DNA of 64,000 nucleotides, taken from positions 12,306 to 76,305 of the forward strand of contig SVBB01000006.1 in the NCBI GenBank assembly GCA_015059105.1, given 5' to 3'. The notes beneath the pieces were generated by a model. The model was not told where the DNA came from. It searched no databases and saw nothing but the letters and a program-made list of their open reading frames with translations. Positions 10,201 to 39,663 of the stretch are shown here, piece by piece (the stretch's first letter is position 1; each line of letters opens with the position of its first letter). Source of the stretch: Erysipelotrichaceae bacterium. Lineage in GTDB: Bacteria > Bacillota_I > Bacilli_A > RFN20 > CAG-826. Both the position numbers and the translations under genes were made by a program.

Positions 10201-10748
10201 TGACCTAAAGCTGGAAGGACTCTAGTTTCAACATGGGAAGAGTCATGGGAACAGACTCTTTGTTCTTCTCCTGCTGTTGTACATGTAGCAGGTGTCTTAA
10301 CTGTCCAATCACCATAAGCATGGCCAGTTGCACTAAGAACTCTTGTTTCAACGTGACTTGCATCGCGGGAACAAACTCTTTGTTCTTCACCATCAACTGT
10401 ACAAGTTGCTGGGGTTTTAACTGTCCAGTCTCCATAATCATGGCCTAAAGCAGCAACAATCGTGTCTGCTTGGGTGATTTCTTGACCTTCTAAGTTAAAT
10501 AATTTTTCACATCCGGTACACACTTTATAAGCGATGCTACCAGGATTAGTACAAGTGGCATTAACCGCGGCAACATCTCTAAATGTATGCTGGTGAACTT
10601 CACTCGAACTACTCGGTGTGATGGAAGAAGATTCTGCCGAAGATGATGGCGGTATGATTGAATTTGAGGATTCAACCACACTTCCACAGGCAGCCATACC
10701 AAACACACCAAATGACGCTAATAAAAATAGTAAGGTTTTCTTTCTCAT
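1233..10748 (-). CDS. Giant (3171 aa) Cys/His-rich repeat lipoprotein
   Basis: Signal peptide with lipobox MAAC (Cys21) and Ser-rich linker, then dozens of GH...ATCT..G....CxxC repeats and a central non-repeat domain. RBS AGGAG upstream. Confidence 0.85.
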   Translation of the reverse strand: MRKKTLLFLLASFGVFGMAACGSVVESSNSIIPPSSSAESSSITPSSSSEVHQHTFRDVAAVNATCTNPGSIAYKVCTGCEKLFNLEGQEITQADTIVAALGHDYGDWTVKTPATCTVDGEEQRVCSRDASHVETRVLSATGHAYGDWTVKTPATCTTAGEEQRVCSHDSSHVETRVLPALGHDYGDWKVTTPATCTTDGEEQRVCSHDSSHVETRVVSATGHDYGNWQITKQPTCEEAGEEKRVCSHDESHVEVRDYGEPTGHSYGVWSTTTEPTCTTSGIQTRVCANDSSHKETRVLDALGHDLVLDQDNPFTWDGTSAKANLVCQRANCDHTEQVPAQMSISVQSSKNCENAQKIKYTATYQGTSDFKIVDGEPATGHHYEFVGFIWNDSNKTAQAKYVCANDGSHVQLFDAEMSEGVLKTAATCENDAVYTYTASYDSHNESRDYAMADTALGHEYDFAGYVWAVDHTTAQAKYVCSHDNNHVIFENAVVTSKVIPSTCIKLDETEYTASYGTEEPEVQKITTGDVKGGHDYEFKGFIWNGTTAKVSLVCKTESSHTFQMIAEVSSVQKTPATCYSKEVRTFTATYQDGEVIRQDSKDIEVGELLPHNLEASFQWNPNYSTAVISLDCQNDGCTHHEEYNADVTSLVTQQQTCEKEEKTTFTATYGDYKDVQIVDTKAASGHDYQFSRIVWGEENSVVSAKAELICHNDNNHKTFADVSITYVDTEPTCVAAGYRTYTAEYIVNEVKYSGTYVVAGDPATGDHTPDTPAHENVQAATCTEAGSYDEVTYCSVCKTHVIKSEHKIVPATGHNFVFDKKIDPTCTKDGYDLYKCSACDDDIEEHRNPVSATGHVWDHDRDCTHGHTCSVCHVEEPALGHDFQLVNKTNATCTEVETSHYKCSRCEETKDVVTGPALGHHYDDEEGHVKEVLQEGETCIYDKVYTCTNGCGTKVTNGTVAHHDYVARITTEANCQNKGVKTYECSVCHHSYPKDIPVDANNHVWQLGTPVDGVRTDTCSVSGCDATRQVTIFTGSANAEGLKGKEIAVSNDEDKVDASMKIDDKIIDNLVDNLGENATLKLNIAKVDVDKITGITPEQKAQIGDNTVYDFSMTMTSGDQDQPVDFGKDNYVTVTIPYPATKVTNADSIAVWFINDSGQVESIKATYANGYITFKTNHFSKYTVTRLSPEEFCGLYGHSLNRLQEVEGDCTHSAYTVDVCARCHEKIVKITKPAPGHNWTLISSSSTDPTCTTSGLKSYECSVCHETKQENVAAIGHEWVFNGYQWGGDYSTAKALFICNHDKNHTELRDAKVTTKEIEPTCTAWGYTVVTAQYGEQEPVSTSVNYVEPLGHNPGEVHNENVVKPTCTEIGYHDEVVRCTRCNEVLSTEVKKQDDALGHKWGEWALYGEDATCTVDGVERRYCENDDKHYEERIRYATGHTPGEAVIENNVDPTCTEPGHYESVISCSVCGNELSRETINVPATGHDWGEWVITTEATCQHAGEEQRKCNNDNEHVETRVIPQTDHVAGEPARENVEEATCTTDGHYDEVIRCIYCNEVLSHDDDITIPALGHDYKVTFVLNDDPNTATASFVCSRDEEHNFSKEVATTVVGDGPTCSEARDVHYAASITYNGVTYNAEPELIKEDYILEHVPGEAVIENEVEATCEHRGGYDEVVYCEVCHEKLDEEHHDIPALPHTSAAPVIENEVAASCTQAGGYDEVKYCVECGKELERNHVIIPKLDHVVSELLSDEDMHFHMCTACGQVLDYEEHAYVNTVTKEATCSVNGVYHHVCEECGFEYDTSIPKTGIHNYVNGVCSMCGKVEKTCDHTELHDKTLSISDVGGCGGYITYKTCECGEVKFIDEYHFEPQCNIYAVQPRMEEREYEGKVVQVQIMTCQDCGMEYHMYNTGSEKDGCTNIVNYPFRIFDPEGEIVLDAIYHYESTYHNHTAFKSFALDEAGNYLAYEYCEDCQKIIRIRGVVISRDDVETINSKQVVDDNKVIETITYSYDDVIVEIAKETVTDGCTITTTNMATVYIDNAVVFEFISEPKQEETHKWKYTYEMMDEEKGCSGGVKMTRECEKCGIAQHGVTYGHSNYEQAVIDFTELSGGTCKGSFEYSTCSVCDEVASFNLMELMNSKIHNYDSNYGTPDENGNMTMTLVCKDCGFTVTGVASTHVDGCVTEMRFTGTAYYDAENPLLVINDYLVQRREDHNYVVKNVEFLDPEKGCEGGAIVSYQCDKCGDSYESRSYGHSYKDKDQSGTIYDDMTKNSLATYHKSTCDICGKDVVHNLEVNYGAFESSVEHQETIDGKDYKGYILTSPDGTLQAKVLAANFKISSCEEANNRYIELLMKNEEGVFASFMVKVDSYTSSSHQWEYNVEFLDPEKGCEGGYEGVKVCSVCHEEEQISGSWHQERTHQTIDLSEYGACQGNLIEIEKCNICGEVFEEYYKEGPCNFKESGEPYYYPDHDEKNGHSHYKRTLVCSKCGLQLEYIVDNINAKESCYYLDSHQTIISIGEFKYTLSDSHEGYSHYYENESYESRGNCEKDGYIYHAICTKCGQKVDELRYGHRYQEYYEPIGEDCEKDGLLVKVKCIICGESGEKQYVINGHKYEEKKVNLSQYIPNQEGYISYSECKYCGKVQPNNVDCYVPGGLINTSNSYVDKDGYKHDVNVDSGLRNDQDEYLFRDSTDRRYVPVDNCRTSVEVTRQVFVNGSVVYTSVSDEGYVYNHDYEYTFTFDKDENCENGFLVVSKCKNCGDINEEHCDYHRPFIVEKVDFTKYGSTHEGELVIEKCPCGEHHDYYVNSTCDFNNTSIEGGNRYTCAECGFQYEITSSYQYHEEGSCVVDRVVTIKVGTQTEKPYVIDIVYSNYDENHSFQDQDHIFAQRTIDEKEGRYVETETFTCERCGGQEISEYEYVEGDYVDNKWNGGKIVRNLHTYANGSSELNLYTYYYIGEEIYQLLTTRLITESDGSWHRNDYEYSDNDPCHYVETDTDSEGYKYSYEGVRHLHETWIYYEKVSCSQNAVEGYICLVCGEASDKYERALDHDFRYDDQKECYVCSRCGLENDTGVSGSIILEDLSNDEYYVVGYAFNTPVQFSKAVILTPNEGKPLILNSNDIDFNKTDSPRAYSFSKEQISEIAAKNEFKDYDVTFVFYPYGDDSSYQYAISLTK
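9840..10450 (-). repeat. Intragenic 120-bp (40-aa) tandem repeats, about 5 copies
   Basis: GHDYGDW..TPATCT..GEEQRVCS.D.SHVETRV units. The 120-nt period is visible at 10081, 10201, 10321 and 10441. Confidence 0.9.
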
Positions 10749-25172: not shown

Positions 25173-27974
25173 TTATTTCTTCTTGTGGAAAAGATTATTC
25201 CAGAATCCACTTTTTTTCTCTTCCACTTCATTGGTTTGTTTTTGTGTATTATTAACATCAGCGTTACTGCTGGTGCTACTTCCTTTTTGTTGAGGCTCAA
25301 TTTTTATTTCCTCAAAATTTGGATTATTATTCATTAACGGTGGCTTACTATTCGTTGGAGTTGGTAAAGGCACTATGCCGTTAAGTTCATCCGCTAATCT
25401 TTTTAATTCAGGATAATATTGACCTTCTTTATCTTGCCTGACTTCTTTAGTAAGATATTTTGCTAATCCCTTCTTGTCTTTTGGAGTCATATTAGAAGAG
25501 AGTTTCTTATAAATTTTATCCGCGATAGGAGAGAATGTATCTCCGCGTTTGCTGGCCAAATAGAGAATTACATAATATTTATCTGCATCAATTTTCTCTA
25601 AGTTAGAAAGGTTGTATAAATCATTCACCATGTTTTCCTGGTCCGCATAAGGGGCGCAGATATTATTAAATAAGGTCGCATCATTACTAAATGAAACGGT
25701 TTTATATTTTAATAAGGTCGTAACTAAAGAACGGAGATAAGTTCTCGCGAAGAGGAATTTACGATTATTATCATCAACACCATTAAAGATGGAAGCATAT
25801 AAATTCTTATCCATGAGACGTTGACGCATCATCACCTCTTTTAAAGATAGTAATTCTTCTGCAAATAATTTAACTTCCACGTTACTGCTCACAGCGCCGA
25901 GACGTTTTAAGGCATTGAATTCATTTTTATAACGAGCTAAATCACCACCCGCGATTTTCTCTAAACTACTTAAAAGAGCAGAATAGATCGCTTTATCTTC
26001 ATCTTTAACTCCTTGTGTAGTGAAAATATTTAACCAATAAGAAATATCATTTGGCTGAATTGCAACGAGCAAATAACCTTTAAAGGCTTTGATGAATAAA
26101 CCTTCTTCATCATCATCTTTTAGATAATATTTCTCATAGTATGATTTAAGGGATTCGTTGGTGCGGCGAGGGGCAGAAGCAAAATCATCTTTTTCAATCT
26201 TTTTAACGATGTTTTTGATGTCGTCGCGTTTAAATAACTCATCATCAATTCTTTGATATCTATTAATATCACTCTTAATGAAATTAGAATAAGCGGTATA
26301 TGCTTCCTTTTTATCACTATGGCAGATGAGTAGCTTATATAGCCTATTTGCAATATAATTGATATCGTTTATATCTTTTAGATAAAGGAGATATTCTTGG
26401 TGAGATTTAATGTCGATCTTATCCACGATTTTCTTATATAAATCACTCTTAAAAGTTACTAAATATGGACTAATAACATTAACGATATATGCCATGAATT
26501 GTTTATCGTTATTGTTATAACTTTCTTCACATATTTTCATCATGAGGTCATAGAGCACTTCTTTGTCTTTATCGATGTTATATGAAGAATCACTAAATAA
26601 AGAATCAAGATAAAGAGCGAGCAAAGCATGATTATTTCTATTCTTATTTAATAATTCTTTACCTTCTCCACTTAATGGATATAGACGCGCGAATTCTTTA
26701 TATATATTAGAATATTTATTTTTAGTTTCATTGATAAAGGCATTCTCATTTTGATTAGAAGACTGCAGATATGGATCAAAGATAAAATGAACATATTTTT
26801 CTTTATCCGCTTCGCTGAGAAGAGGATAGAGGAATCTTTCCATCGCCAAAGTGGCTTCACCTTTAGGATATTTTCCACTTATGACATTATTAAAGGCATC
26901 CGGAATGAAACGAGATAAATTAGTCCCCCTGGAATAGACATTGAGAAGTTCAAGAGCTTCATTAACATCATAATTATCTAGGCCATTCTTCTCGAGTTCA
27001 TTGATGCGCACCGCCATATGATTATCCACACTATATGTGTTTTTGATGCGCTCAATGGTTGCTACAAAAGTCATCGCAGAATAGATATCTTTTTCGAGAT
27101 ATTTTTCTTCTTGATCGACCAATTCATCAACAGTAAGATTTTGAGTGAACTGGTTATTTGGAATATCCACTACCACGCTCGTCAATAATTTTTGTTGGAG
27201 TTTCATTCTCGAAGAAGAACCAGTAATGAATTGAATGCGATATTTTGAACCTTCTGGTAAACCGAGTTTTACATTATTATCATCATAAGAATAAGTATTG
27301 AAGAATATTTGTTCTGCTTCTTCGGGAGATAATAATAAAGAAATCGCGGAAATCCATAGACGTGCATTTTCTAATTTATCATTGATAAAAATCGGTTGTT
27401 TATTATTTTTATCCTTTAAAATGGTGACAATTTTTTTAATATGTTCTTTACGATTATCACTATTTAAGAACGCAGTAATTTCACTTTGTGAAAAACTTGC
27501 GGATGTTTCAACATCAATAGACGGTAATGGAGCGGGATTTTTAGCTGTCCATTCTTCAAGAGTTAAATCATGGCGGAATATGCTTGATCCCATATAGAGA
27601 ATCGGAAATTTTTCGACTTTATCCATAACTAGAGCGTGAATTAAATAGTTCCCCGTTCTCCCACTTGGAGTAAAGCCTTTAAATTCTGGTCCGATATAGC
27701 CAGATTCCGCTAAACAGTATTTTCCACTTGGAAGTTTGAAATAAGCAAAATTACGTGGACATACACCTTCGATATCTTTCATATCAACAGGGTTCCAGGT
27801 CATGTTATTTAAAGACCTACGCATATCAGAAAGCATCGGTACCGCTGGATATTGCATAAGCAAGAAAATCACTTTCGCATCATCTTGAGAAATATCAGAA
27901 GACATCGAATAAACGGCGTAACCACCATTAGGTGAGTTCTTATAGGAAGTATAAAGATATTGACTTACTTTCAT
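25173..27974 (-). CDS. GTPase-associated protein 1-like (GAP1-N2 N-terminus, long helical C-terminus)
   Basis: QYLYTS...GGY...FAYFKLPSG...YIG...GRTGNYLIHALV and WISAISLLL...FNTY resemble GAP1-N2 and GAP1-M. It lies between two GTPase genes. Start at 27974 with RBS AAGGAG. Confidence 0.75.
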   Translation of the reverse strand: MKVSQYLYTSYKNSPNGGYAVYSMSSDISQDDAKVIFLLMQYPAVPMLSDMRRSLNNMTWNPVDMKDIEGVCPRNFAYFKLPSGKYCLAESGYIGPEFKGFTPSGRTGNYLIHALVMDKVEKFPILYMGSSIFRHDLTLEEWTAKNPAPLPSIDVETSASFSQSEITAFLNSDNRKEHIKKIVTILKDKNNKQPIFINDKLENARLWISAISLLLSPEEAEQIFFNTYSYDDNNVKLGLPEGSKYRIQFITGSSSRMKLQQKLLTSVVVDIPNNQFTQNLTVDELVDQEEKYLEKDIYSAMTFVATIERIKNTYSVDNHMAVRINELEKNGLDNYDVNEALELLNVYSRGTNLSRFIPDAFNNVISGKYPKGEATLAMERFLYPLLSEADKEKYVHFIFDPYLQSSNQNENAFINETKNKYSNIYKEFARLYPLSGEGKELLNKNRNNHALLALYLDSLFSDSSYNIDKDKEVLYDLMMKICEESYNNNDKQFMAYIVNVISPYLVTFKSDLYKKIVDKIDIKSHQEYLLYLKDINDINYIANRLYKLLICHSDKKEAYTAYSNFIKSDINRYQRIDDELFKRDDIKNIVKKIEKDDFASAPRRTNESLKSYYEKYYLKDDDEEGLFIKAFKGYLLVAIQPNDISYWLNIFTTQGVKDEDKAIYSALLSSLEKIAGGDLARYKNEFNALKRLGAVSSNVEVKLFAEELLSLKEVMMRQRLMDKNLYASIFNGVDDNNRKFLFARTYLRSLVTTLLKYKTVSFSNDATLFNNICAPYADQENMVNDLYNLSNLEKIDADKYYVILYLASKRGDTFSPIADKIYKKLSSNMTPKDKKGLAKYLTKEVRQDKEGQYYPELKRLADELNGIVPLPTPTNSKPPLMNNNPNFEEIKIEPQQKGSSTSSNADVNNTQKQTNEVEEKKSGFWNNLFHKKK

Positions 27975-27990
27975 CACACCTTCTCCTTTC

Positions 27991-29127
27991 TTACAACTTC
28001 TTGGTTGTCGTGACAAATTTGTATTGGGCTAAAATCCAAATTAATGGGTCGAGGATATTTTTAGGTTTTGGACCTTCTTCTGGAAGTTGTTCGAATTCAT
28101 CGGGAGCTGTTCCAAGAGCGCTGCAAGCGAAAAAGCCAACTTTAGTAAAAGCTTTGAGTCCTTGCGTTAATTCCCCGTCTCCTTCAAAGAAGTTGCCAAG
28201 TAGTCCATCCATATCAATCTGACATGATTCGAAATGGCTCTTGATGAAAGTTCCATATTTTTCATGTGGTGAAACATCATAGATTGCCATCGTATCATCG
28301 ATCAAACCATATTTTTCTAAAACGTCCATCTTCGTGAAGACGAGAGCGATTGGAATATCGATGTTTCCACGGATGTTAGTTTTTCTTCTAATCTGCTCCA
28401 CAATATTGGATAAAACAGTTTCAATGTCTGTATTTTTCTGTGGTAAAGATACTCCTTTGGCCGCTAATACCTTACGAATTGACGGGACCTGTAATGGGTC
28501 GAGGAGGAGGATGATACCTTTGGAGTTAGCGATATATTGGTTATAAACATCCATCGAGTTTGAAGAATCTAAGTTTTCACCTGCGGTATCATAGAAAGTC
28601 AAAGTGACGATGTTTTTAATGTTATTTTTCTTATCCATAAAACGGAGAGGGAAAATGAGAGGTGGGGTTTCACCGGCGTCAGTCGCAGTGATGACTTGAT
28701 GGGCCTCATATAAGGGCTCCCCGTAGAATTGGTTATAATGGTTTTTGCTCTCTTCATCCGCGGAGATTGCTAAAGAACAATTGAAGCGAAGAGACATTTT
28801 CTTTCTAATTTCGTGAATTAAAACACCGATGTAATTACTTTTACCAGTAGCTTTCGCTCCTAATAAAGCAATCGGTAAAGATATTTCATTTAAAAAATCA
28901 CGTGGAATTGCGCGTTGAATATGTGGACAAAGAATAGTCTTAGACGCGTGGTTGCAGTTCATGCAGCGACGCACATCCTTTGGATTGACACTACTATCGG
29001 GATTTCTCTGCACTTTGTTTGGGCACGGTGCAGTCGTATCGCCAGCGATGTTATAAGAACACAAAACTTTGCATTCTTCTAGAGTGTGCTCGTTATAACA
29101 GTACGGACAAGTAAATCTATTAGCCAT
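27991..29127 (-). CDS. Soluble TRAFAC GTPase (double-GTPase type) with N-terminal Zn-binding Cys cluster
   Basis: CPYC...C..C...CPH; G1 GAKATGKS, G3 DTAGE, LLLDPLQ, G4 TKMD, G5 CSALG. Confidence 0.88.
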   Translation of the reverse strand: MANRFTCPYCYNEHTLEECKVLCSYNIAGDTTAPCPNKVQRNPDSSVNPKDVRRCMNCNHASKTILCPHIQRAIPRDFLNEISLPIALLGAKATGKSNYIGVLIHEIRKKMSLRFNCSLAISADEESKNHYNQFYGEPLYEAHQVITATDAGETPPLIFPLRFMDKKNNIKNIVTLTFYDTAGENLDSSNSMDVYNQYIANSKGIILLLDPLQVPSIRKVLAAKGVSLPQKNTDIETVLSNIVEQIRRKTNIRGNIDIPIALVFTKMDVLEKYGLIDDTMAIYDVSPHEKYGTFIKSHFESCQIDMDGLLGNFFEGDGELTQGLKAFTKVGFFACSALGTAPDEFEQLPEEGPKPKNILDPLIWILAQYKFVTTTKKL

Positions 29128-29136
29128 AAGAACCTC

Positions 29137-32100
29137 CTATAATTTTTCTTGTCTTCTAAGCTTCACATAGCAACCATTTTCACTTTTCACAAAGAGAGCG
29201 AATTTAGCTCCAAGCGGTAAAGGTGGGCAAGTGAAGGAGAGTGAACCTTTATACTTCTTTCCTATAAATCCTTTTTTCAAAGTAATAGCAGGGAAGGAAG
29301 TTAGTTCATCACCAGAATTTTTATCTAGCGGTAATTTACGATCATGATAACGGAGAGTAGTTTCAGGAACTGTAGCCTCGTGATCACATTCAAAACTCAC
29401 CGTTAATTTACAAGATTTCCCTACCACCCCAGGGTGATCGATAGCAAAGAACACCACTTCTCTAGTACGAGGAGTGATCACATCATCAATATGAGTAGCG
29501 CGGGAATATATTTTGTTGCCACCCACCACTAATTCCGAGAATAAAGAGATGTAGTGGCTAACATTTTTCTTTAAAGGTAATTTAAAGCCATCTTGACTTA
29601 AGAAATCGCTTGGTTTTCCTTCATAGACATCGTCAGCTTCTTCTAGAAAATCGTTGACAAAATGGGAGTTACTAACTTTGACATAGATTTTTGAAGCGGA
29701 TTGGTTCGGAGTTCCTTTGATAATCAAAGTATTTTCTGTCTCTTCATAAGAAAGTCCATCGATACCAGTGATAGTATTGACGGGAATCGGCTCGCTGATG
29801 ATGAATAATTGGTCATTAGCGATGTAAGGATAAACGAAACCGACAGATCCGACAGGAAGAGTGAATATCTTATTGCCGTTATTATCTTTTTTAATGTCGA
29901 TGAATGATAAGCCATTAATCATCTTGGCTTGTTCGCTGATCTTGGTAATTACATTAGTGATAATCGAACTAGATTTTGCATTAGCGAATAATAATTTTGC
30001 ATTTCCTGTATCATTTTCATCAAAAGAAATATTAAATGCACTATCGCTTATCTGATTAACTTTCACATTTTTAAGTGGGGAAAGAGCGCTGAAAGTTGTA
30101 AATACTTGTTTGCTGCCTCTCGAAGAGATGATTCGACCGTTATTTTCATAATTAACGATGATCAAATAACCGACACTCTGCGCCGTTGGTGAATCAGTGA
30201 AACCTTTTAAAGTTGCTTCTACTTTACGAGCACTAGTTTTGCTGATTGGAGCAATAGCGTTATCGGAACAATATACTTCGATGGATTTAGCGTTAGCAGG
30301 GGCGCTATAAGAGACCTTGATAATATTTGGCTCCATCGATTGGACAACGTTATTCACTTCTTGGAAAAGCACAACCGGGCTCATCGCTTTGGTGAGAGAA
30401 GAATTAACATCTGCACGCGTTGCAAAAACAGCATAATAATATTGCACCGCACTCACCACACCGCTATCATCAAAGAAATTTAATGAAAGATTATTGATAA
30501 CAATCTCGCCATCGGTTGCCGATGTCGGCGCACTACCGATTTTCTTGATGACGGTATATAGATTCCCATCTGCATCTTTTCCAACATCCCATTCGATACG
30601 AACAAATTTATTATCGTTGACCATAACCTTAAGGTTACTTGGCGCATTAGGCGGATATTTGCTCATGAAGGCTTTCGCATCAGAATAGTCAGAGCAAATC
30701 TCTAATGAAGCGATGGCGCATTTGATTGCCTCACTGATGCGACCACCATTCACAAAAGTGCGGGCTTTATTAATTTCTGCATTCGCCTTCGCGATATTAT
30801 TCTTGATGTCGAGAATGAGATCGTCAGTGACTTTGCCGTTATATGTTAAATATTTATTTTTTAAGGCAATCGCTAAAGAAAGAGCTCGCATGAAGCATTT
30901 TTTGACAATTGCTTCATCGATGGTTTTAAGTTCTTCTTTATAAGCTGCCCCTAATGTTTCTTCTTCTTTTTTACGTTTTTCAATTTCTTGAGTGGCTTTA
31001 TTAATCTTGCTTGCCACTTTACTACCCGCGAAATCTGGTTCGGGGACGCATGAACGTATAGAGCTGATCGCCGCATTGGCTTTCGCCTCATCATAAGCGA
31101 CAGATAGTAGTTCTTTATCTAATAAAGCGGAAGCTTGATCGAATAATTTTTTATTGTTGTAATTAGCTTTACATGTTGGACATGTCTGACTCTTCTTGGT
31201 GAAAGCCATCTTTGAACCACAGTTCCAACATGAAACTTCAAGAGGGCGACCACAATGTGGACAAACTGTCGCGCCTACTTCATAGATTTTTCCACAATCA
31301 TCGTATGGACAAATCTCGAGATGTTTGATACCAAGTTGGCCTTTGACACTATCCGCATCATCACCGCCACTTACCATCAAATTGTAATATTTTAATCCCG
31401 CGCCAAGCATCTCTTCCACTTCGTTGATTGGAAGTTTGGTACGCGATTGAATGATCGTCGCAAAATCATAATATTCTTTTAAAGTGATATCTTTTGCGCC
31501 ATAAGATTTGCGGAGTCTAAAATTCCCCCACACTTCGTCTTTAAGCATGATATAAAAATCATATTGTTGACGAGTTTTCTTGTCTTTTAAAAGAATACTT
31601 TTTACAAGACCACAAATAGTATTAGCGGTCTGTTTGACCTTAAGATCACTTTTCTTATTCGCTTCCTGATATACCCTTTGTTGAGCAGCATCGATTTCAG
31701 ATTCGCTTGCGCTATTAGCGATGCCGAGGAATTCATACATATCTTTCTTTGCCGGAGGAGTTGCTAAAATATCGCTGACCTTATCGAAGTCACTAAGCGG
31801 AATCACATTTGTAATATTATCGATATATTTTACGGCTTTATTAGAATTGAATTTATTGAAACAATCTTCTAATTCTGGGAACGTAAAATATTTCATCGTC
31901 TTATTGACGGTGTTGCATAAATCTTGTAATTCACTGCGGTAAATGATGCCATTACTCTTCACTTTTGAAGAGATGATTTGCATGACATCATCAAGTTTGA
32001 AGTGCTTTGCTCTTTCAGCTTCTTCCTTCTTTTTTGCGGGATCTTTGAGCAAGGTTTCTTCAATATCTGAACGAAGTTCTATTAAGCGACGAGAAACGAT

Positions 32101-32238
32101 GTCACCGCTTGTATTGCCACATGCCGAGGCGATGGCTTTAGTAATTTCGTTAGCGTTATTTGCATCGATACCAAGTTTGCATGCGATGAAATAATTATAT
32201 TTAGGATTCTTAAGCTCCTCTGGTGTACGTACGCTCAT
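29137..32238 (-). CDS. Multidomain co-chaperone-like protein: degenerate J-like domain, four Cys knuckles, helical/TPR-like region, FN3-like repeats
   Basis: DMYEFLGIANSASESEI...LKDKKTRQQYD with no HPD; CPYDDC, CPHC, CWNC, CPTC; PNAPSNLKV...IEW...YTV...YYYAVFA. Confidence 0.72.
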   Translation of the reverse strand: MSVRTPEELKNPKYNYFIACKLGIDANNANEITKAIASACGNTSGDIVSRRLIELRSDIEETLLKDPAKKKEEAERAKHFKLDDVMQIISSKVKSNGIIYRSELQDLCNTVNKTMKYFTFPELEDCFNKFNSNKAVKYIDNITNVIPLSDFDKVSDILATPPAKKDMYEFLGIANSASESEIDAAQQRVYQEANKKSDLKVKQTANTICGLVKSILLKDKKTRQQYDFYIMLKDEVWGNFRLRKSYGAKDITLKEYYDFATIIQSRTKLPINEVEEMLGAGLKYYNLMVSGGDDADSVKGQLGIKHLEICPYDDCGKIYEVGATVCPHCGRPLEVSCWNCGSKMAFTKKSQTCPTCKANYNNKKLFDQASALLDKELLSVAYDEAKANAAISSIRSCVPEPDFAGSKVASKINKATQEIEKRKKEEETLGAAYKEELKTIDEAIVKKCFMRALSLAIALKNKYLTYNGKVTDDLILDIKNNIAKANAEINKARTFVNGGRISEAIKCAIASLEICSDYSDAKAFMSKYPPNAPSNLKVMVNDNKFVRIEWDVGKDADGNLYTVIKKIGSAPTSATDGEIVINNLSLNFFDDSGVVSAVQYYYAVFATRADVNSSLTKAMSPVVLFQEVNNVVQSMEPNIIKVSYSAPANAKSIEVYCSDNAIAPISKTSARKVEATLKGFTDSPTAQSVGYLIIVNYENNGRIISSRGSKQVFTTFSALSPLKNVKVNQISDSAFNISFDENDTGNAKLLFANAKSSSIITNVITKISEQAKMINGLSFIDIKKDNNGNKIFTLPVGSVGFVYPYIANDQLFIISEPIPVNTITGIDGLSYEETENTLIIKGTPNQSASKIYVKVSNSHFVNDFLEEADDVYEGKPSDFLSQDGFKLPLKKNVSHYISLFSELVVGGNKIYSRATHIDDVITPRTREVVFFAIDHPGVVGKSCKLTVSFECDHEATVPETTLRYHDRKLPLDKNSGDELTSFPAITLKKGFIGKKYKGSLSFTCPPLPLGAKFALFVKSENGCYVKLRRQEKL

Positions 32239-32294
32239 ATGATAAATTCCTTATATTTAAAGTAATAATTACACTGCTAAACAAGTGCTAAAAA

Positions 32295-34427
32295 CTAATT
32301 GCCACTTGCAAGGGAAGAACCAATCGACTTGAAAGTGGTAACGAGTTGACTCAAGTCAACCTTCTTAGCACAGCCTGGGGAAGCGATTTGGTTAAGGAAC
32401 GATTGATTGCTGTCGGCGACGCCTACCGCATATATCGTTGCTCCTTTATTTTTCACATCATTCGCGGAGTTTTTCGCTACTTCTGGTTCCCACCATTCGC
32501 CATCTGTTAAAACGATGATAATCTCTGTGCCAGCTTGCACTGATCCCCCGCCACCGAAGGCGCTTTTAAGAGAAAATTTTGGTTTAGCCCCACCACTCGT
32601 ATTCATTCTGTAATACCTTAAGTAATGGTTGAATGGGTCCGCGCTTGTGCCACCATCAGCATCTAATGCATTAACCGCCGACATGATACGTGATTTATTT
32701 TGTTCATGATCTAACACCATTTGACAATTTTCATTGAAGGAAATGAGTGAAACATGGGTGAAAGATAAATCTATTTGATTTACAAATTCTTCGACAGCTT
32801 GAACCGCCGCTCTGATACCAGACCCATACATAGAACCAGAAATATCGATCATGAATGTAACATCAAATACCGGTTTACGGCTCTCAGCTTTCTCTTTCTT
32901 TAAACGCGCTTCAATTTCACTTAAGGATTCAGTGATTGGACACTGTTTAACATTCAAGGATTGACCGCCTTGAATCTTGGCTTTCACTTCCACGACACCG
33001 TTTTGGTTATATAGATATGAAACGACAACTTGGTTCTTTCCGCTTGGGAAACCTGTTATTTCATATTTATATAAAATATTTGCGTCATAAGGATCCTCAG
33101 TCTCGCCTTGGAGAACATAGGCTTCCATCTTTGTGCCTTGATAGGAATAACTCTTATCGAAGTCTTCTCCAACATTGGAATTTTTCTTGATGACGATGGA
33201 GTTAATTAATTTATCACTTTCATCATTTTCCCAAATCAATAAGCCTAAAGAATGGGAAGTGATATCTTTGATACTGTTATTAGACAGGGTGAAGGCTGCT
33301 GGTTTTTCTCCCCCAGAGAAATTCGCCATCCCCAAATTAACGGGATTAAGAGTCAGGGTTCCAAATTTGCATAGATGGGCTTGCATAGCTGCCCCTGCGG
33401 CGACGATAGAGTCAACTTTGTTTCCGATGATGCGTGGTTTTTTTCCGAATTCTCTTTCCACTGCTTCTGCAATCTGTGGCATTCTTGTGGAACCACCGAC
33501 AAGGACGACCTCATCGAGATTCTTCCAAGAAAATCCTCCGCCAATTTCTGTGAAACACTGCTCTGTTAAAAGCATCGTTTCATTGAGTAAATTTTCTGTT
33601 GCACGATCAAAATCAGCGCGTGTTATCTCGTATTTTCCATACATTCCATCACATTGAATGGCAATATTAGTAGATGGAACATTAGTTAAGACCTTCTTGG
33701 CTTTTTCACATTTGACCATGAGCTCGTTAAAATCTTCAGGGTAGGCGGTGATATCAATGCCAAATTCGCTATTGAATTTATCGACGACAAAATCAATCAA
33801 AGCGCGATCCCAGTCTCTTCCTCCGAGTTGGTGGTTACCATTAGTGCAAAGCGGGGTGACGTTTGGTCCGACAATCTTTGCAATCGTGACGTCAAAAGTA
33901 CCACCGCCAAGGTCATAAACCATGACATTTTTTGTTCCGACCCCAGTTAAACCATAAGCGATGATTGCTGCCGTTGGTTCGTTGAGTATTTTTAATACTT
34001 TAAGACCTGCTCTTTCACCGGCATGAATAGTAGCCTGTCTTTGAGCTTCATTAAAATAAGCTGGGCAAGTGATAACTGCTCCTTCAATTTCCACATCATT
34101 AGATTCTTCAATCTGTTTTTTGAGATTTTCCAGAAAAATAGCCGACAAATCTTCAGCAGAATAATCTTTTCCGTCTAAATATGCCGAATAATTTGGCTCT
34201 CCCATCTGGGACTTATAGAATGAAGCAGTGTTAGTGTTTCCACTAGCTTGTAAGTCTTTTGCTTCTTGTCCGATGAGAATTTGCCCACCTTCGATATAGA
34301 CTACCGAGGGGGTAGTTTCCTCACCGATTTCATTTTTTAAAATATTTATTTTGGAGGTACCCTCATCAAAGAGAGCAACCGCCGAATAGGTCGTGCCTAA
34401 ATCAATTCCAACATTAACTTTTTTCAT
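32295..34427 (-). CDS. Hsp70-family protein fused to a C-terminal vWA domain
   Basis: GIDLGTTYS, TCPAYF, NEPTAA, DLGGGTFD and VGGSTRMP; vWA MIDAS DISGS...GGT...LTDG. Start at 34427 with GAGG upstream. Confidence 0.92.
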   Translation of the reverse strand: MKKVNVGIDLGTTYSAVALFDEGTSKINILKNEIGEETTPSVVYIEGGQILIGQEAKDLQASGNTNTASFYKSQMGEPNYSAYLDGKDYSAEDLSAIFLENLKKQIEESNDVEIEGAVITCPAYFNEAQRQATIHAGERAGLKVLKILNEPTAAIIAYGLTGVGTKNVMVYDLGGGTFDVTIAKIVGPNVTPLCTNGNHQLGGRDWDRALIDFVVDKFNSEFGIDITAYPEDFNELMVKCEKAKKVLTNVPSTNIAIQCDGMYGKYEITRADFDRATENLLNETMLLTEQCFTEIGGGFSWKNLDEVVLVGGSTRMPQIAEAVEREFGKKPRIIGNKVDSIVAAGAAMQAHLCKFGTLTLNPVNLGMANFSGGEKPAAFTLSNNSIKDITSHSLGLLIWENDESDKLINSIVIKKNSNVGEDFDKSYSYQGTKMEAYVLQGETEDPYDANILYKYEITGFPSGKNQVVVSYLYNQNGVVEVKAKIQGGQSLNVKQCPITESLSEIEARLKKEKAESRKPVFDVTFMIDISGSMYGSGIRAAVQAVEEFVNQIDLSFTHVSLISFNENCQMVLDHEQNKSRIMSAVNALDADGGTSADPFNHYLRYYRMNTSGGAKPKFSLKSAFGGGGSVQAGTEIIIVLTDGEWWEPEVAKNSANDVKNKGATIYAVGVADSNQSFLNQIASPGCAKKVDLSQLVTTFKSIGSSLASGN

Positions 34428-34466
34428 AAGAGTACCTCGCAAAAAAATAAATAATTTTTTAAATAA

Positions 34467-36146
34467 TTAAGCTAAAGTGAGTTTAGAAGCGACATCCATA
34501 CCGACTTTATCGGCATCGCCACCTTTTCTCACTGGTTTAAGGACGTGTTTCACACCAGAATTAATTTCGATGAGAGTGAGAGTCAATTGTCCGTTCATAT
34601 CAACGTCGAGTTGAATGTCAACTGGAGTGGACGCTGGAATAGCTGGTGAGAAAGCGATTGGCATATCTTCATAAAGTTCTGCACATTCGTCTGCGGCGAC
34701 ATCAGCATTCAAAGATTCGTTTTCCATAATCTTGAGGTTGATACTATCGACGAGATTATTACCTTCTGCGATGACAAGGCCCTGTCCACCACTGAGTTGC
34801 GCGTAGGATGCTGAGGCTGGTTTAGGTGTATCTTTAACGATGAGGTTATAATATCTTTCTTCACCGCCATTATAGTAACGGAAGCAGTAAGATTTAGTGC
34901 ATAATTCAACGACCTTATTGACTGTACCATTGCTACCAGCAAATTCTGTAGAAGCTCCACTGCTTAAAGCGAATGGGCTATTTGCATCACCACCGAATGC
35001 TGCTGATTCGCTAGTTGGAGCCACTACTTCACCAGTCGCTTCATCAATAGCTAAACCACTAGCCACTAGAGCAGCACCATTAGAAACAGCCTTATCTGGA
35101 TCAAACGACACTAATGGTTTGTTATACTGTGCTGTTAACCCAGCTTCGACTTGTTTCATTCTTGTCGATCCACCGACTAAGATGATTTCATCGATTTGAT
35201 CGATCGTCATGCCTTTCTTAGTGAGCATATCGTCGATTAAAAGAATCGTTTGATTGAATAAGTCCGCTGTTAATTCATCAAATTTTTCTTGGGTGATTTC
35301 CACACGATATTTATTACCATCAAATGATGGAGTGACAGTTGCAGTTGGTTTAGCAGTGAGCATCTTCTTGGCTGCTTCAATCTTCTCAGAGAAGAAAGCT
35401 TTCATTTCTGGATCTTCATCTAAAACCGAACGATCAACACCGGTATTATTGCAGAATTCATCTTTGACATAATTCGCTAATGCTGCATCCCAGTCTTTAC
35501 CACCGAGTTGGTGATTACCACCAGTTGTGATGACTTGGTATTTACGATCAGTGCCTTCAAAATCAAGTCTCATAACTGTACAGTCGAAAGTACCACCACC
35601 TAAGTCATAAATTAAAACTGTTTTATGAATATTTTCATTTCTGGAATTACCATAAGCGATAGCCGCCGCGGTTGGTTCATCCATGATTTTTAAGACTTTT
35701 AATGGTTGTCCATTTGCTAAAGTGACATTTTCACCAGCTAATCTAGTGGCCGCACGGGCTGCATCACCAAAGTAAGCTGGACAAGTGATGACCGCACCTT
35801 CAATTTCTTCGCCACCTAACGCTAACTCCGCATCAGCGATAAGTTTCTTTAAAATAAGGGTAGAGACGGCAGAGGCACTATATTCAACACCATTGACTGT
35901 TGCACGATAGTCAGGATCACCCATGTAGTTTTTAATTCTTTCTACTAAACATTCAGGATTCATCGCCCCCGCTTCTCTAGCCACGGAGCCAACAGTCACT
36001 GTTTCTCCATTTGGATCAAAGAAAACGATAGATGGAGTTGTCTTTTCTCCTTCGCTAGATTCAATGTTGACGATGTTTTGTGTTTCATCAACATAAGAAA
36101 CAACTGAGTATGTTGTTCCTAAATCAATACCAACTTTTTTACCCAT
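34467..36146 (-). CDS. Specialised Hsp70-family protein lacking the helical lid
   Basis: GIDLGTTYS, TCPAYF, DEPTAA, DLGGGTFD and VGGSTRM. The substrate-binding domain is divergent and ends soon after the beta subdomain. Not housekeeping DnaK. Confidence 0.92.
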   Translation of the reverse strand: MGKKVGIDLGTTYSVVSYVDETQNIVNIESSEGEKTTPSIVFFDPNGETVTVGSVAREAGAMNPECLVERIKNYMGDPDYRATVNGVEYSASAVSTLILKKLIADAELALGGEEIEGAVITCPAYFGDAARAATRLAGENVTLANGQPLKVLKIMDEPTAAAIAYGNSRNENIHKTVLIYDLGGGTFDCTVMRLDFEGTDRKYQVITTGGNHQLGGKDWDAALANYVKDEFCNNTGVDRSVLDEDPEMKAFFSEKIEAAKKMLTAKPTATVTPSFDGNKYRVEITQEKFDELTADLFNQTILLIDDMLTKKGMTIDQIDEIILVGGSTRMKQVEAGLTAQYNKPLVSFDPDKAVSNGAALVASGLAIDEATGEVVAPTSESAAFGGDANSPFALSSGASTEFAGSNGTVNKVVELCTKSYCFRYYNGGEERYYNLIVKDTPKPASASYAQLSGGQGLVIAEGNNLVDSINLKIMENESLNADVAADECAELYEDMPIAFSPAIPASTPVDIQLDVDMNGQLTLTLIEINSGVKHVLKPVRKGGDADKVGMDVASKLTLA

Positions 36147-36161
36147 AAAAATTCCTTCCTT

Positions 36162-37334
36162 TTATTGTTGTTCGTATTTATAAACATCCACTTTACATAA
36201 GTAGATGACTTTACCGCCGTAAAGATATGTATCGGTATGTCTAAAGGCAATCGTCTTGTCGAGTTCCTCTTTATTTGTTGGAACAAATTTCAGCATACGA
36301 TTAGTCTTCATGTCATAAACGTTAGAGACATCGATATCAATCTCCACTCCCAAACGTGAGAGAATATCGCTAGTTGAGGAGATGACAAAGATGAGGACAT
36401 CGCTATAAAGAGATGTTTTGTTATCTTCGTTAATAGCCTCCATAGTATTCTCGATTTTCTTCTTAAGTTTGAGATAGAAATTAGTCACAATCTTGTAAGA
36501 TGGGAGAAGAAGCGCATCGGCATAATTAGCATCCACACTCGCAGCAACTGCCTCCACTTCTTTATATGCTTCATCAAGCAAAGCATTATCTTTTAAGATT
36601 GCTTCTATATTTGCTTTATTCTCTTCGACAAGTTTAATGACATCATTAAGTGAATAAGCACCTTCTTCTTTCGCTTGTTCATCGCTTTCTTCAACGATGA
36701 CGTTTTCAGTTTCTGGCTCTTTAACATAGTTATCCACTTTACGCATTGGGATAGTTGCTAAATCTTTACCATCGAGTAAAAATTTCTCCCCATCATATTC
36801 GATAGAGAAGTTTGCTAGCATCTCCACAAAATCATCATCGAGGTAACCGAGATACTTTTTTGTTGTTTCAATATCTGTAGAAAACTTAGCGACATTCCGC
36901 AAAGTATTTTTCGCATCCTCGCGATAGGAAATAAGACCCATGATAATTTGTTTGAGGAGAGTATAACCAAAATCTTCGCGATATTTGTTGAGCTCATTTT
37001 TCATCTTTACAATCGTTTCATCTTTAGTTTTCGCTAAGCGAATAGAATCGCGCAAAGCATTAAAATATTGTTTGAGCAAAACAACGATTTCTTCATATTT
37101 TGGTTCTGGTTCAATTGGTTTTTCTTGGGCAGGTTCTTCGTTAACAATTTCTTCATTAACTGGCTCTGCTTCTAGAGGTGTCTCTTCAATAACGATCTCT
37201 ATTTTCTCTTCAGGATTTGCTTCTACCGGCTGTTCTTTCTTTTCCTCAATAACAGGCTTTTCTTCCTCGTTAGAAGACTCATCATTAATTGGTTCAATCA
37301 CAATCTTGTCTAAATCAAAAACTGATATTGTCAC
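36162..37334 (-). CDS. GrpE-like nucleotide exchange factor with duplicated helical region
   Basis: Acidic N-terminus; KDETIVKMKNELNKY...EMLANFSIE; second half DILSRLGVE...YDMKTN...DKTIA...YLYGGKVIY..KVDVY. GTG start with RBS AAGGGGG. First gene before two Hsp70 genes. Confidence 0.72.
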   Translation of the reverse strand: MTISVFDLDKIVIEPINDESSNEEEKPVIEEKKEQPVEANPEEKIEIVIEETPLEAEPVNEEIVNEEPAQEKPIEPEPKYEEIVVLLKQYFNALRDSIRLAKTKDETIVKMKNELNKYREDFGYTLLKQIIMGLISYREDAKNTLRNVAKFSTDIETTKKYLGYLDDDFVEMLANFSIEYDGEKFLLDGKDLATIPMRKVDNYVKEPETENVIVEESDEQAKEEGAYSLNDVIKLVEENKANIEAILKDNALLDEAYKEVEAVAASVDANYADALLLPSYKIVTNFYLKLKKKIENTMEAINEDNKTSLYSDVLIFVISSTSDILSRLGVEIDIDVSNVYDMKTNRMLKFVPTNKEELDKTIAFRHTDTYLYGGKVIYLCKVDVYKYEQQ

Positions 37335-37549
37335 AATATAAACCCCCTTTACTTTTATAGTAAAAATAGCATCATAAGTGCTAAAAAAGCGCTATAGTGT
37401 AAAGTCCTTTTAAAAAAATTATTTAAGGCTTTTTGAGTTAGTTAATACTACTTTTGGAGTAATAAATATTAACCTTAGTTAACTTAGACACGGGTTTGAA
37501 CAAGGCTCTGTAACTTTTTATAATTTTTTATAGAAGCGAGGGTATAGCC

Positions 37550-38665
37550 ATGATGAATAAATCAAAAAAAAGAAAACAAAGAAGTGTCACCATCGTGTTA
37601 ACAGAAGCATGCAATTTACGCTGTACATATTGTTATGAATCATTCAAAACACCACACAAGATGACACTCGAAATGGCTAAATCCATCGTCGATAAAGAGA
37701 TGGCAAACTCCCAGAATTATGACTATATTCAATTCGACCTTTTCGGTGGTGAACCCTTCTTAGCGTTTGATGTTATCAAACCACTCGTAGAATATGCAGA
37801 AGAAAAAGGCTATACAAAAAAGTGCTTCTTCTTCCCAACTTCTAACGGCACATTGATACATGGAGAAATCCAAGACTGGTTAGTCGCTCATAAAGATTCT
37901 ATCTGGGTAGGACTAAGTCTAGATGGGACGAAAGAGATGCATGACACAAATCGTGACAATTCTTTTGATTTAATCGATTTAGACTTCTTCGCGAAGAACT
38001 ACCCCACTCAAGATATCAAAATGACCATTTCTAAAGAGAGCCTTCCACATCTCGCTGAAGGGGTGATTTTTTGCCACGATAAAGGATTCGGCGTTTCCTG
38101 TAACCTCGCCTATAACATTGACTGGTCAGATAAAGAAAACGAAGAAATTCTTAAACGTGAATTATCAAAACTGATAGATTTCTATCTCGAACATCCAAAT
38201 TATAATCCTTGCTCCATATTAGCAGGTTCAATCCTCGGGGTAGTTCGCGATGAGAGCAAACCTTTAAAACGTCAATGTGGATCTGGCCTCACAATGGTGG
38301 CTTATGAAATCGATGGAAAACGTTATCCATGTCAATTCTTCATGCCGACATCAATCGGCAAAGAAAAAGCACGAGAAATAGGTAAAATTGATCTCCCTGA
38401 GTTTACCACTGATGACATGCTTGATAAAAAATGTCGAAACTGCGTTGCTAAGCAAATATGCATGATTTGTTATGGGGCTAACTACGCGGCAACCGGATCA
38501 CCTTTCTCCCGCGACGAAAACACATGCGAACTAAATAAAATCATTTTTAAAGCCAGATCATATTTCTACGCTATGCAGTGGAAAAAAGGCTATCTCAAAG
38601 ATATGCCAAAAAGAGAATTAAATCGTCTATTAAAAGCTATAAAAATCATACAGACAGAACTATAA
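37550..38665 (+). CDS. Radical SAM enzyme with SPASM domain (peptide-maturase-like)
   Basis: CNLRCTYC, FGGEP, SLDG; CGSG...GKRYPC...CRNC.....CMIC...C. Confidence 0.93.
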   Translation: MMNKSKKRKQRSVTIVLTEACNLRCTYCYESFKTPHKMTLEMAKSIVDKEMANSQNYDYIQFDLFGGEPFLAFDVIKPLVEYAEEKGYTKKCFFFPTSNGTLIHGEIQDWLVAHKDSIWVGLSLDGTKEMHDTNRDNSFDLIDLDFFAKNYPTQDIKMTISKESLPHLAEGVIFCHDKGFGVSCNLAYNIDWSDKENEEILKRELSKLIDFYLEHPNYNPCSILAGSILGVVRDESKPLKRQCGSGLTMVAYEIDGKRYPCQFFMPTSIGKEKAREIGKIDLPEFTTDDMLDKKCRNCVAKQICMICYGANYAATGSPFSRDENTCELNKIIFKARSYFYAMQWKKGYLKDMPKRELNRLLKAIKIIQTEL

Positions 38666-38683
38666 GAAAGGAGGATGTTAAAT

Positions 38684-38851
38684 ATGTTCGTTTTGACTAA
38701 TGAGCTCTTAGCCGAAATCGAAAGCTCTATCATCGAAGAGGAAATAGATCTCTCCGTAGAAGCAGAGCCAGATTGCTACACTTGCCAAGATGCATGCCAT
38801 AGAGAATGCTCAGGCAACTGCGGTGGTCCACAAAAATCTGGTCAACCATAG
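38684..38851 (+). CDS. Unannotated 55-aa Cys-rich RiPP-like precursor peptide
   Basis: MFVLTNELLAEIESSIIEEEIDLSVEAEPDCYTCQDACHRECSGNCGGPQKSGQP*. RBS AAGGAGG at 38668-38674. Starts 18 nt after the radical SAM stop. Confidence 0.88.
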   Translation: MFVLTNELLAEIESSIIEEEIDLSVEAEPDCYTCQDACHRECSGNCGGPQKSGQP

Positions 38852-38864
38852 GGACGATGTCAAT

Positions 38865-38902
38865 AAAAAAGGCAGTTCTCAACGTAGAATCCGCCTTTTT
38901 TT
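38865..38902. terminator. Bidirectional terminator
   Basis: AAAAAAGGCagTTCT-caacgt-AGAAtccGCCTTTTTTT between convergent genes. Confidence 0.75.
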
Positions 38903-38910
38903 GTCCTTTG

Positions 38911-39132
38911 TTATACATGATACTCTTCTTCGTATCCACAATCTTTGCAGCGCATTTTAATGATGAATTTCTTCTTGCCTGACATCCCTCCGATAATCGT
39001 GCCAGGAGTCCCAAATAATGCGGTTCCCACTACTGCTTTACCAACGCTGAAACCTTCGCGATATTTCGTTTTAGAAACAACACGATAATTCTTGCTTTTG
39101 CAGCTTGGGCATTTGCTAGGAATTCTTGCCAT
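38911..39132 (-). CDS. Small Zn-ribbon protein with Gly-rich hydrophobic insert
   Basis: CPSC...GFSVGKAVVGTALFGTPGTIIGG...CKDCG. Confidence 0.8.
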   Translation of the reverse strand: MARIPSKCPSCKSKNYRVVSKTKYREGFSVGKAVVGTALFGTPGTIIGGMSGKKKFIIKMRCKDCGYEEEYHV

Positions 39133-39141
39133 ATAATAACT

Positions 39142-39663
39142 CTACTTTCTTATAATATTGAGGGTCGCAGGAAAAGGACACTGACTCAAAACGTTATTGA
39201 ATGCTTTTTCAACTTTAGCTGATAAATTATTAAACACTTTATCTTCTTCGTCTAAATCGTTAGCTTTTCCTGATCCCGTCCAGACTTTTGGAGTGATCTC
39301 TACATTAACATTAGGCAACGAAACATCAACCACGACCTTAGCTTGGTAATTGTTAATTCTTTTAATCGCCCGTTTAAACTGATTTTCCCAATAAGCCTCA
39401 TCTTGAGTGGAACTACTCGGTGGTTTTGGATGTCCAAAACGAATTGGTTTATGCGATGTTCCCCCATTAGAACTGCTGCTATTAGCCTTGTGTCTAATTC
39501 GAATCTCTTTATAGCCCATCACTAAGCAAGAGACTGCAACTATTAGAAGTATGATTCCAAATATAATGCCTGCCGGACTCCCATTAGAAAAAAGAGAAAC
39601 ACCGACGGCAAAGGCTATTATTCCAATAACTAAAAATAATATTGGTTTAAGGTTGTTTTTCAT
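39142..39663 (-). CDS. Hypothetical protein with two N-terminal TM helices
   Basis: Hydrophobic hairpin, Ser/Pro linker and a small soluble domain. Confidence 0.7.
   Translation of the reverse strand: MKNNLKPILFLVIGIIAFAVGVSLFSNGSPAGIIFGIILLIVAVSCLVMGYKEIRIRHKANSSSSNGGTSHKPIRFGHPKPPSSSTQDEAYWENQFKRAIKRINNYQAKVVVDVSLPNVNVEITPKVWTGSGKANDLDEEDKVFNNLSAKVEKAFNNVLSQCPFPATLNIIRK

Follow-up and report, generated by a model that had tools for sequence, protein, structure and literature searches.

A radical SAM/SPASM enzyme and an adjacent cysteine-rich peptide form a conserved gene pair, probably a two-gene RiPP operon, in an Erysipelotrichaceae bacterium

The window analyzed here, a stretch of 64,000 nucleotides (nt) from Erysipelotrichaceae bacterium GCA_015059105.1 (contig SVBB01000006.1, forward strand, 12,306–76,305), carries a gene for a 371-amino-acid (aa) radical S-adenosylmethionine (SAM)/SPASM enzyme that is followed on the same strand by a 55-aa, cysteine-rich open reading frame (ORF). 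The two genes are a conserved pair; they probably form a self-contained operon for a peptide that is ribosomally synthesized and then post-translationally modified (RiPP), in which a SPASM maturase that docks the leader of its substrate would cross-link the Cys-rich core by thioethers. The elements of the pair, in positions of the window, are as follows:

37550–38665, plus strand: radical SAM/SPASM enzyme gene, 371 aa, with no RiPP recognition element (RRE) at its N terminus; Radical_SAM Pfam match of 42.6 bits
38684–38851, plus strand: precursor ORF, 55 aa, starting 18 nt past the enzyme gene
38684–38773, plus strand: precursor leader, residues 1–30, amphipathic and acidic with a Met-Phe start, from alignment and composition
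38774–38851, plus strand: precursor core, residues 31–55, with five Cys in a 2-3-3-3 spacing, stop codon included

The association of enzyme and peptide was evaluated in 41 loci, the window included, that contain an enzyme homologue scoring at least 200 bits; this set was not de-replicated, and several of its metagenome loci are near-duplicates. An adjacent ORF on the same strand with at least two CXXXC units occurs in 21 of the 41 loci. A strict rule, which called for a Shine-Dalgarno (SD)-like site, a length of 30–130 aa and at least four Cys in the last 30 residues, was satisfied next to the enzyme in 24 of the 41. In these loci, 27 strict-rule ORFs lie within the 51.8 kb flanking the enzymes vs. 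1 in 500.7 kb of control sequence, taken from both strands of the remaining parts of the loci, an enrichment of approximately 260-fold beside the homologues. The sequence-only reading of this stretch, which had matched the enzyme with the small ORF as its precursor and had proposed a search for similar ORFs after homologues, is borne out in that pairing. Inspection of the loci that these rules missed turns up more Cys-rich ORFs, which have only three Cys, are preceded by a weaker SD site or lie on cut contigs; no precursor candidate was seen at two loci with full flanks (L002, L112) and two with cut flanks (L003, L111).

The precursor gene is located upstream of the enzyme in most loci, and downstream, by inspection, in six or so of the roughly 26 distinct groups (the window, L088, L004, L006, L007, and L114). 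In L088 (G016 contig C1:210000–229000), it lies between two radical SAM paralogues that are 51% and 36% identical to the window enzyme. Two tandem precursor genes per enzyme, with cores that depart from the CXXXC register, are found in L101–L103 (3557–3960) and L006 (7094–7554). In L089 (2767–6154), and also in L092 and L115, the neighbors of the pair are a small GNAT-like acetyltransferase and an acyl-CoA/fatty-acid ligase, which matches PRK06187 with 254 bits, below the cut-off; these gene contents hint at peptide acylation in this sub-clade.

The leader of the window peptide has 10 acidic and 0 basic residues, and the core Cys stand at positions 31, 34, 38, 42, and 46, so that the acidic 30-aa leader and the five-Cys core are as originally described; the residues four positions after each Cys are Gln, Cys, Cys, Cys, and Gln. 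No NCBIfam model matches the peptide at E <= 1, Pfam gives no convincing match, and a word-based search recovered just two close relatives. In an alignment of 14 precursors, Phe2 is present in 14 of 14, position 4 is Leu, Ile, or Val, positions 8, 9, 12, and 16 are mostly hydrophobic, and the Cys are in register. A profile built from these 14 sequences and run against 1.84 billion representatives retrieved 121 clusters at E <= 0.001, of which 11 were at E <= 1e-10. The Met-Phe start recurs in 104 of the 121 clusters; the number of Cys per precursor varies from 3 to 13 across the family, and the commonest spacings are 2-3-3-3 (25 clusters), 2-3-3-3-3-3-3 (24), 2-3-3-3-3 (12), and 2-3-3-3-3-3 (10). 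The ending of the window's core is common to four clusters. Most of the 121 clusters have a CxxC(xxxC)n core, and such a core behind a Met-Phe leader is the hallmark of the family; a count of five Cys and a precursor located downstream are variants within it. The earlier description of a distinct family is thereby divided: it holds in that no curated model covers the enzyme or the peptide and no RRE is present, but five Cys and a downstream precursor do not define the family.

The peptides of the relatives were also compared to the curated target models TIGR04114, TIGR04117, and TIGR04118, which bear the names 'Cys-rich repeat', 'Cys-Xaa-Xaa-Xaa repeat radical SAM target' and 'AC3_0185 family rSAM-modified Cys-rich RiPP'; the scores, 10–19 bits, were below the cut-offs of 20–50. 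The TIGR04118 precursor model gave 0 matches above its cut-off over 399 scored genomes of the phylum, and 3 weak matches that contained stops. The kind of system is already catalogued under these three models; this particular family is uncatalogued.

The enzyme belongs to the radical SAM/SPASM superfamily by its CX3CX2C motif, its seven-Cys SPASM motif and its fold; Pfam detects the radical SAM core alone. Its two Cys-bearing regions were delimited in an alignment of 22 family members, in which a GGEP motif (residues 66–69) is likewise invariant in all 22:

37610–37633, plus strand: CX3CX2C radical SAM motif, Cys 21, 25, and 28, invariant in 22 of 22 aligned members
38276–38527, plus strand: SPASM region, seven Cys (243, 261, 295, 298, 304, 307, 326) invariant in 22 of 22, aligned to the SPASM domains of CteB and anSME

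The seven SPASM Cys would provide the sites for two auxiliary [4Fe-4S] clusters. Among the NCBIfam models, the PapB model NF047865 is the top match and extends over the whole length of the enzyme (157.7 bits vs. a cut-off of 340), followed by the TIGR04115 'CXXX-repeat target' maturase (143.1 bits vs. 350; profile positions 2–359 of 359). RRE-bearing families (CcpM, nif11-type, QhpD, ScfB, and others) match residues ~6–138 only, with profile offsets of 73–111; the ScfB model reaches 101.3 bits vs. 425 over residues 6–138. The anSME model TIGR03942 scores 69 bits (cut-off 349), and the CrpC model TIGR04463 scores 52.9 bits in the core only. The best scores among the 22 family members, E 1.7e-46 for the PapB model and E 6.9e-45 for TIGR04115, are all far below the cut-offs; none of the curated NCBIfam models covers the enzyme or the peptide. 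The kinship to SCIFF peptides that had been drawn from the Cys spacing was overstated, as the nearest curated families are those of the PapB model and TIGR04115.

An AlphaFold2 model of the enzyme has a mean predicted local confidence (pLDDT) of 91.6 and a predicted template modeling score (pTM) of 0.88. With a profile of the 22 family members, the best solved relative is CteB (110.8 bits; CteB 93–451 to profile positions 5–341), and anSME is second (65 bits). The model superimposes on solved relatives as follows, and their Foldseek ranking agrees with these scores:

CteB: Z 29.9, root-mean-square deviation 3.0, 306 residues aligned; model residues 9–342, chain residues 92–448
ChlB: Z 24.6; model residues 9–347, chain residues 6–375
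anSME: Z 23.8; model residues 10–350, chain residues 3–370

The start of the enzyme coincides with the start of the CteB catalytic domain, with CteB residue 92 aligned to enzyme residue 9. Since the CX3CX2C motif begins at residue 21 and the alignment begins at CteB 92, the enzyme has no room for an N-terminal RRE, just as the sequence-only reading had noted. That reading had also seen no stand-alone PqqD-like gene, and correctly so: none occurs in the window at E <= 0.01, and the sole match of a whole-genome PF05402 search is on contig C13, the window being on C19. The fused or adjacent PqqD-like RRE by which an RRE-dependent system is recognized is thus absent from the enzyme-precursor pair. 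The genome's only PqqD-family ORF (94 aa, 39 bits; C13:1931–5134, L156) has as neighbors a 238-aa ORF, a 140-aa ORF, and a fragment of an ABC-transporter-like ORF; this group may be a separate peptide-modification or export cluster, and its PqqD-like ORF may also serve the enzyme-precursor pair in trans. An RRE-less maturase is not the new trait for which it had been taken, as RRE-less SPASM peptide enzymes have already been solved, e.g., ChlB with its leader.

A predicted structure of the enzyme-precursor complex suggests how the leader could be recognized. The prediction used enzyme and precursor alignments of our own, three [4Fe-4S] clusters and SAM; its interface score (ipSAE) was 0.80, 0.81, and 0.81, and the best of three controls scored 0.00; in calibration, 58 of 80 solved complexes and 2 of 110 mismatched pairs attained that mark. 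The runs share at least 40% of their contacts, and the pLDDT of the partner peptide is 60–61. Leader residues 1–4, 8–9, 11–13, and 15–18 are predicted to contact enzyme residues 331–345 and 354–369, which belong to two C-terminal helices:

38516–38659, plus strand: two C-terminal helices, residues 323–345 and 354–370, predicted leader docking site (from the model, contacts at 331–369, and conservation)

Within this interface, leader residues 2, 4, 8, 9, and 12 touch enzyme residues 331–345 and 361–368, and both sets are conserved; among the enzyme contact residues, A335 and L361 are conserved in all 22 sequences, I364 and Q368 in 20, S337 and A341 in 19, and I331, K334, Y338, and W344 in 18. 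Further contacts are predicted between leader residues 20–30 and enzyme residues 202–206, 227–242, and 302. Helix 354–370 has no counterpart in CteB, ChlB, and anSME, whose alignments end at model residues 342–350; solved relatives overall align no further than model residues 342–355.

In the proposed mechanism, the 371-aa enzyme would be a peptide maturase, with one SAM-binding and two putative auxiliary [4Fe-4S] clusters, that acts on the 55-aa peptide. The amphipathic Met-Phe leader helix would dock in the groove between helices 323–345 and 354–370, in place of an RRE, and the remaining leader would run along the SPASM region and thereby bring the five-Cys core into the active site. Most likely, as an analogy to CteB and PapB suggests, the enzyme would take a hydrogen from a core residue and join that residue to a Cys sulfur; repetition of this step would produce a ladder of small thioether rings, with 2 Da lost per link. 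Thioether formation is our best guess because the closest characterized enzymes make Cys thioethers, and Cys thioether cross-linking is the most likely function of the enzyme by this analogy. The pairing of the two genes, the conservation of the pair, and the enzyme fold are established, and the binding mode comes from modeling; the type of reaction, the carbon at which the links would sit (alpha vs. side-chain), and the biological role are inferred. In sactipeptides, the Cys sulfur is linked to an alpha carbon, and in ranthipeptides to a non-alpha carbon; sactionine and ranthionine links cannot be told apart from the sequence. A more specific version of this scheme is put forward tentatively, as possible rather than probable: the RRE would be replaced by a Met-Phe leader helix clamped between the C-terminal helix of the SPASM region and the extra terminal helix, in a large, unnamed, and mostly gut-borne RiPP family whose product would be a new scaffold, a contiguous ladder of four-residue thioether rings on CxxC(xxxC)n, with acceptors that are mostly Ser, Thr, or Gly and not Asp or Glu.

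Several observations weigh against a leader-docking, thioether-forming operon. The score of the complex is the model's own confidence, and its alignments and ligands differ from the calibration set-up; the model may also draw on memory, as leader complexes of related enzymes are solved. The terminal helix may not be special to RRE-less enzymes: distant RRE-bearing relatives have 68–76 residues past the SPASM CX2CX5C motif, compared to 77 here, and may thus carry a similar tail. The enzyme is far below the cut-off for every curated maturase family. Asp, Glu, Asn, or Gln is present in only 278 of the 559 CXXXC units of the family, which are dominated by Ser, Thr, Gly, and Asn; a PapB-like rule that links Cys to Asp or Glu therefore does not fit these precursors. 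Neither a protease nor an exporter is encoded beside the pair, and there is no universal partner gene; when 222 neighboring ORFs from 38 loci were clustered, the largest groups covered 7 loci, and these were partly duplicates.

The same enzyme and substrate could be engaged in another chemistry, such as formylglycine formation of the anSME type, epimerization, carbon–carbon cross-linking of the ChlB/PqqE type, or another Cys-derived modification; we regard this as unlikely, yet as an alternative that has to be taken seriously. The RRE-less architecture and the fold recur in anSME (Z 23.8) and ChlB (Z 24.6), the dominance of Ser, Thr, and Gly between the Cys provides no obvious acceptor rule, and SPASM enzymes catalyze many types of reactions (PMC10114670). 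The best matches in sequence and fold are, however, thioether synthases (Z 29.9 for CteB; 157.7 bits for PapB vs. 69 bits for anSME); the regular Cys array is the only strictly conserved feature of the core, which fits a Cys that reacts in every repeat, and aromatic residues that could form cyclophanes are few.

It is improbable that the small protein is merely co-encoded with the enzyme and serves as a metal- or iron-sulfur-binding partner, or as a regulator, rather than as a substrate. Regular CXXXC arrays can bind metals, and the lack of a leader protease or exporter gene nearby would be consistent with such a role, as would the example of CrpA, a Cys-rich SPASM target that is a suspected metal binder (PMC13692751). 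Yet even CrpA is a substrate that receives thioethers (PMC13692751); moreover, the layout of leader plus core is kept in 121 clusters, and in the predicted complex the leader docks to the enzyme.

Membership in a named family, either SCIFF/ScfB or freyrasin/PapB, is very improbable. The Cys spacing resembles that of SCIFF peptides, as the sequence-only reading had noted, and the PapB model heads the NCBIfam list; against this stand the scores of both models, 101.3 vs. 425 bits for ScfB and 157.7 vs. 340 bits for PapB, the lack of any NCBIfam match of the peptide at E <= 1, and the RRE at residues 1–85 of published PapB (PMC12715619), which is absent from the enzyme here. With the PapB and ScfB models, all 22 members of the family score no better than about E 1e-46, under the cut-offs. 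Finally, a chance open frame without function is scarcely credible, since the ORF is short and without a match among curated models but has the ~260-fold enrichment, the conserved leader and Cys register, the 121 related clusters and a properly spaced GGAGG to its credit.

The thioether-forming operon proposed here can be compared with several known systems. CteB, which acts on CteA and is the enzyme of the SCIFF-type ranthipeptide thermocellin (PDB 5wgg, 5why), resembles the window enzyme in its radical SAM core, its seven-Cys SPASM region and its Cys-rich substrate; in contrast, its residues 1–91, the RRE, have no counterpart here, and it ends where enzyme residue 342–344 aligns, without the last helix. 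Membership in the SCIFF/ScfB families (TIGR03973, TIGR03974) was rejected, with no precursor match, the low ScfB score given above, five Cys instead of six, and no RRE. The freyrasin enzyme PapB installs several thioethers on the multi-Cys, regularly spaced core of PapA (PMC9413430); it joins each Cys to the acidic residue of a Cys-X3-Asp/Glu motif (PMC9413430, PMC12715619). The PapB family (NF047865) was likewise rejected by score, by the missing RRE, and by the absence of Cys-X3-Asp and Cys-X3-Glu from the core of the window peptide. In the TIGR04115 CXXX-repeat system (targets TIGR04114, TIGR04117, and TIGR04118), an RRE-less maturase of similar length is combined with CXXX-repeat targets, as in the window; an adjacent CXXX-repeat peptide (2-3-3-3) is indeed present here, yet the three target models have no match to it at E <= 1, and membership in TIGR04115 was rejected by score (143.1 bits, cut-off 350). 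TIGR04115 systems are curated predictions, and no published chemistry for them was found in the literature searched.

ChlB, whose substrate is ChlA (PDB 9gm3, 9gmc), has a radical SAM/SPASM domain as large as that of the window enzyme, lacks an N-terminal RRE, and has been solved with its substrate leader; it is 18% identical to the window enzyme, ends where residue 347 aligns, and is a cyclophane synthase that makes carbon–carbon links, according to a title cited in PMC12912966. The anaerobic sulfatase maturase anSME (PDB 4k36–4k39) has the same RRE-less architecture and length; it differs from the pair here in that its target is a single Cys or Ser of a large protein, which it oxidizes, and in that no leader peptide is involved, and membership in its family (TIGR03942) was rejected at 69 vs. 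349 bits. CrpC (TIGR04463), also a SPASM enzyme, introduces ranthionine links into CrpA, a Cys-rich target with a repetitive sequence (PMC13692751); unlike the window enzyme CrpC has an RRE, and its target is a 28.8-kDa protein.

The enzyme family is large: among 3847 candidates, 1370 relatives were found at E <= 0.001. The best 119 after the enzyme itself share 50–68% identity and are 364–410 aa long, with the exception of one homologue of 599 aa (P0029), in which the enzyme is fused to a TraG/VirD4-type coupling-protein tail (PF10412, PF02534, PF12696); this fusion may be an artefact of gene calling or assembly, or a hint that conjugative elements carry the gene. Full-length distant relatives with 36–42% identity include, among the matches listed, proteins in records labeled Eubacterium, Tyzzerella, Bacteroidales, Muribaculaceae, Chlorobiaceae, and Synergistales. 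Within the order of the host, the enzyme gene is sporadic, with matches at E <= 1e-40 in 5 of 401 genomes, the window's own genome counted. Near-identical DNA is found in fecal and gut metagenome runs, and relatives that are 95–99% alike in bovine gut runs. In public databases, relatives bear the names 'uncharacterized protein' and '4Fe-4S cluster-binding domain-containing protein', and a precursor is listed as a 'hypothetical protein'. Literature searches, with supplements outside their scope and an earlier description therefore possible, found no study of the enzyme-precursor family. The claim of novelty made from the sequence is accordingly to be trimmed: the family is unnamed and no study of it was found, but the window's pair is one member of a large family, and CXXX-repeat targets are already curated.

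The system does not overturn any current idea, as RRE-less SPASM enzymes with Cys-rich CXXX-repeat targets have figured in catalogues for a long time, as predictions. Substrate recognition by such maturases without an RRE is poorly understood, and the pair offers a minimal two-gene system with a clear leader motif and a docking hypothesis that mutations can test, from a family that is abundant in gut metagenomes and yet without a curated model. Thioether-forming radical SAM/SPASM maturases are coming into use as tools for peptide cyclization, an aim that the PapB papers pursue.

The following expression signals surround the pair:

38670–38674, plus strand: GGAGG ribosome-binding site, with a 9-nt spacer to the precursor ATG at 38684
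37496–37524, plus strand: promoter-like site TTGAAC-17-TATAAT, 10 of 12 consensus positions, 26 nt before the enzyme start
38866–38902, no strand assigned: hairpin between an A-run and a T-run, from folding only, probably shared with the convergent gene 38911–39132

The GGAGG site, which follows the enzyme's stop codon (TAA, 38663–38665), is the strong ribosome-binding site that had been proposed for the precursor, and comparable SD-like sites precede most homologous precursors. A second possible precursor ATG at 38675 directly abuts GGAGG; the ATG at 38684 is favored because the relatives begin with Met-Phe. The promoter-like site is weak evidence, since the 8 sites of this type in the region do not outnumber those of shuffled sequences (6.1 ± 2.7). 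The terminator attributed to the small ORF stands in part: folding of 38852–38905 yields a hairpin with a T-run behind it (-12.4 kcal/mol, z -2.24), but 7 of 200 shuffles were equally stable, and a consensus terminator scan listed nothing downstream of the small ORF. A terminator after the precursor is plausible, not strong; the hairpin is likely a two-way terminator common to the precursor and the convergent gene. Because the genes on its flanks run in the opposite direction, the enzyme-precursor pair is a stand-alone two-gene unit. A metatranscriptome contig of low depth, for which carry-over of DNA is possible, has 215 identical nt and covers 38595–38809, including the enzyme-precursor junction, a weak hint at a single transcript; other short contigs from RNA libraries cover 38185–38372 in the enzyme gene and 38903–39200 on the neighboring gene (two metatranscriptome libraries). 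The GC content is 0.35–0.40 across 24–46 kb, with no shift at the cassette.

The convergent 73-aa ORF (38911–39132, minus strand) ends at the shared hairpin; it contains two CxxC pairs, is zinc-ribbon-like and has no Pfam match. Downstream of the pair are small unmatched ORFs, a DUF1292 protein, an oxidoreductase, a MarR regulator, and a flavodoxin-like protein; a 3171-aa ORF at 1233–10748 (minus strand) has no Pfam match at E <= 0.001. PADLOC, run on the enzyme and nine neighbors, made no defense call and gave only generic matches of the radical SAM core to pVip (56.9 and 46.2 bits); none of the six genes upstream had a match. Upstream of the pair, a run of six genes on the minus strand (25173–37334) encodes a GAP1-N2/GAP1-M protein (947 aa), a Double-GTPase 2 protein (378 aa), an Hsp70-vWA fusion (715 aa), an Hsp70-like protein (559 aa), a 1033-aa protein with zinc-ribbon and TerY-C matches below the Pfam cut-offs, and an acidic 390-aa protein without a match; by its domains, this set looks like a GTPase-centered conflict system.

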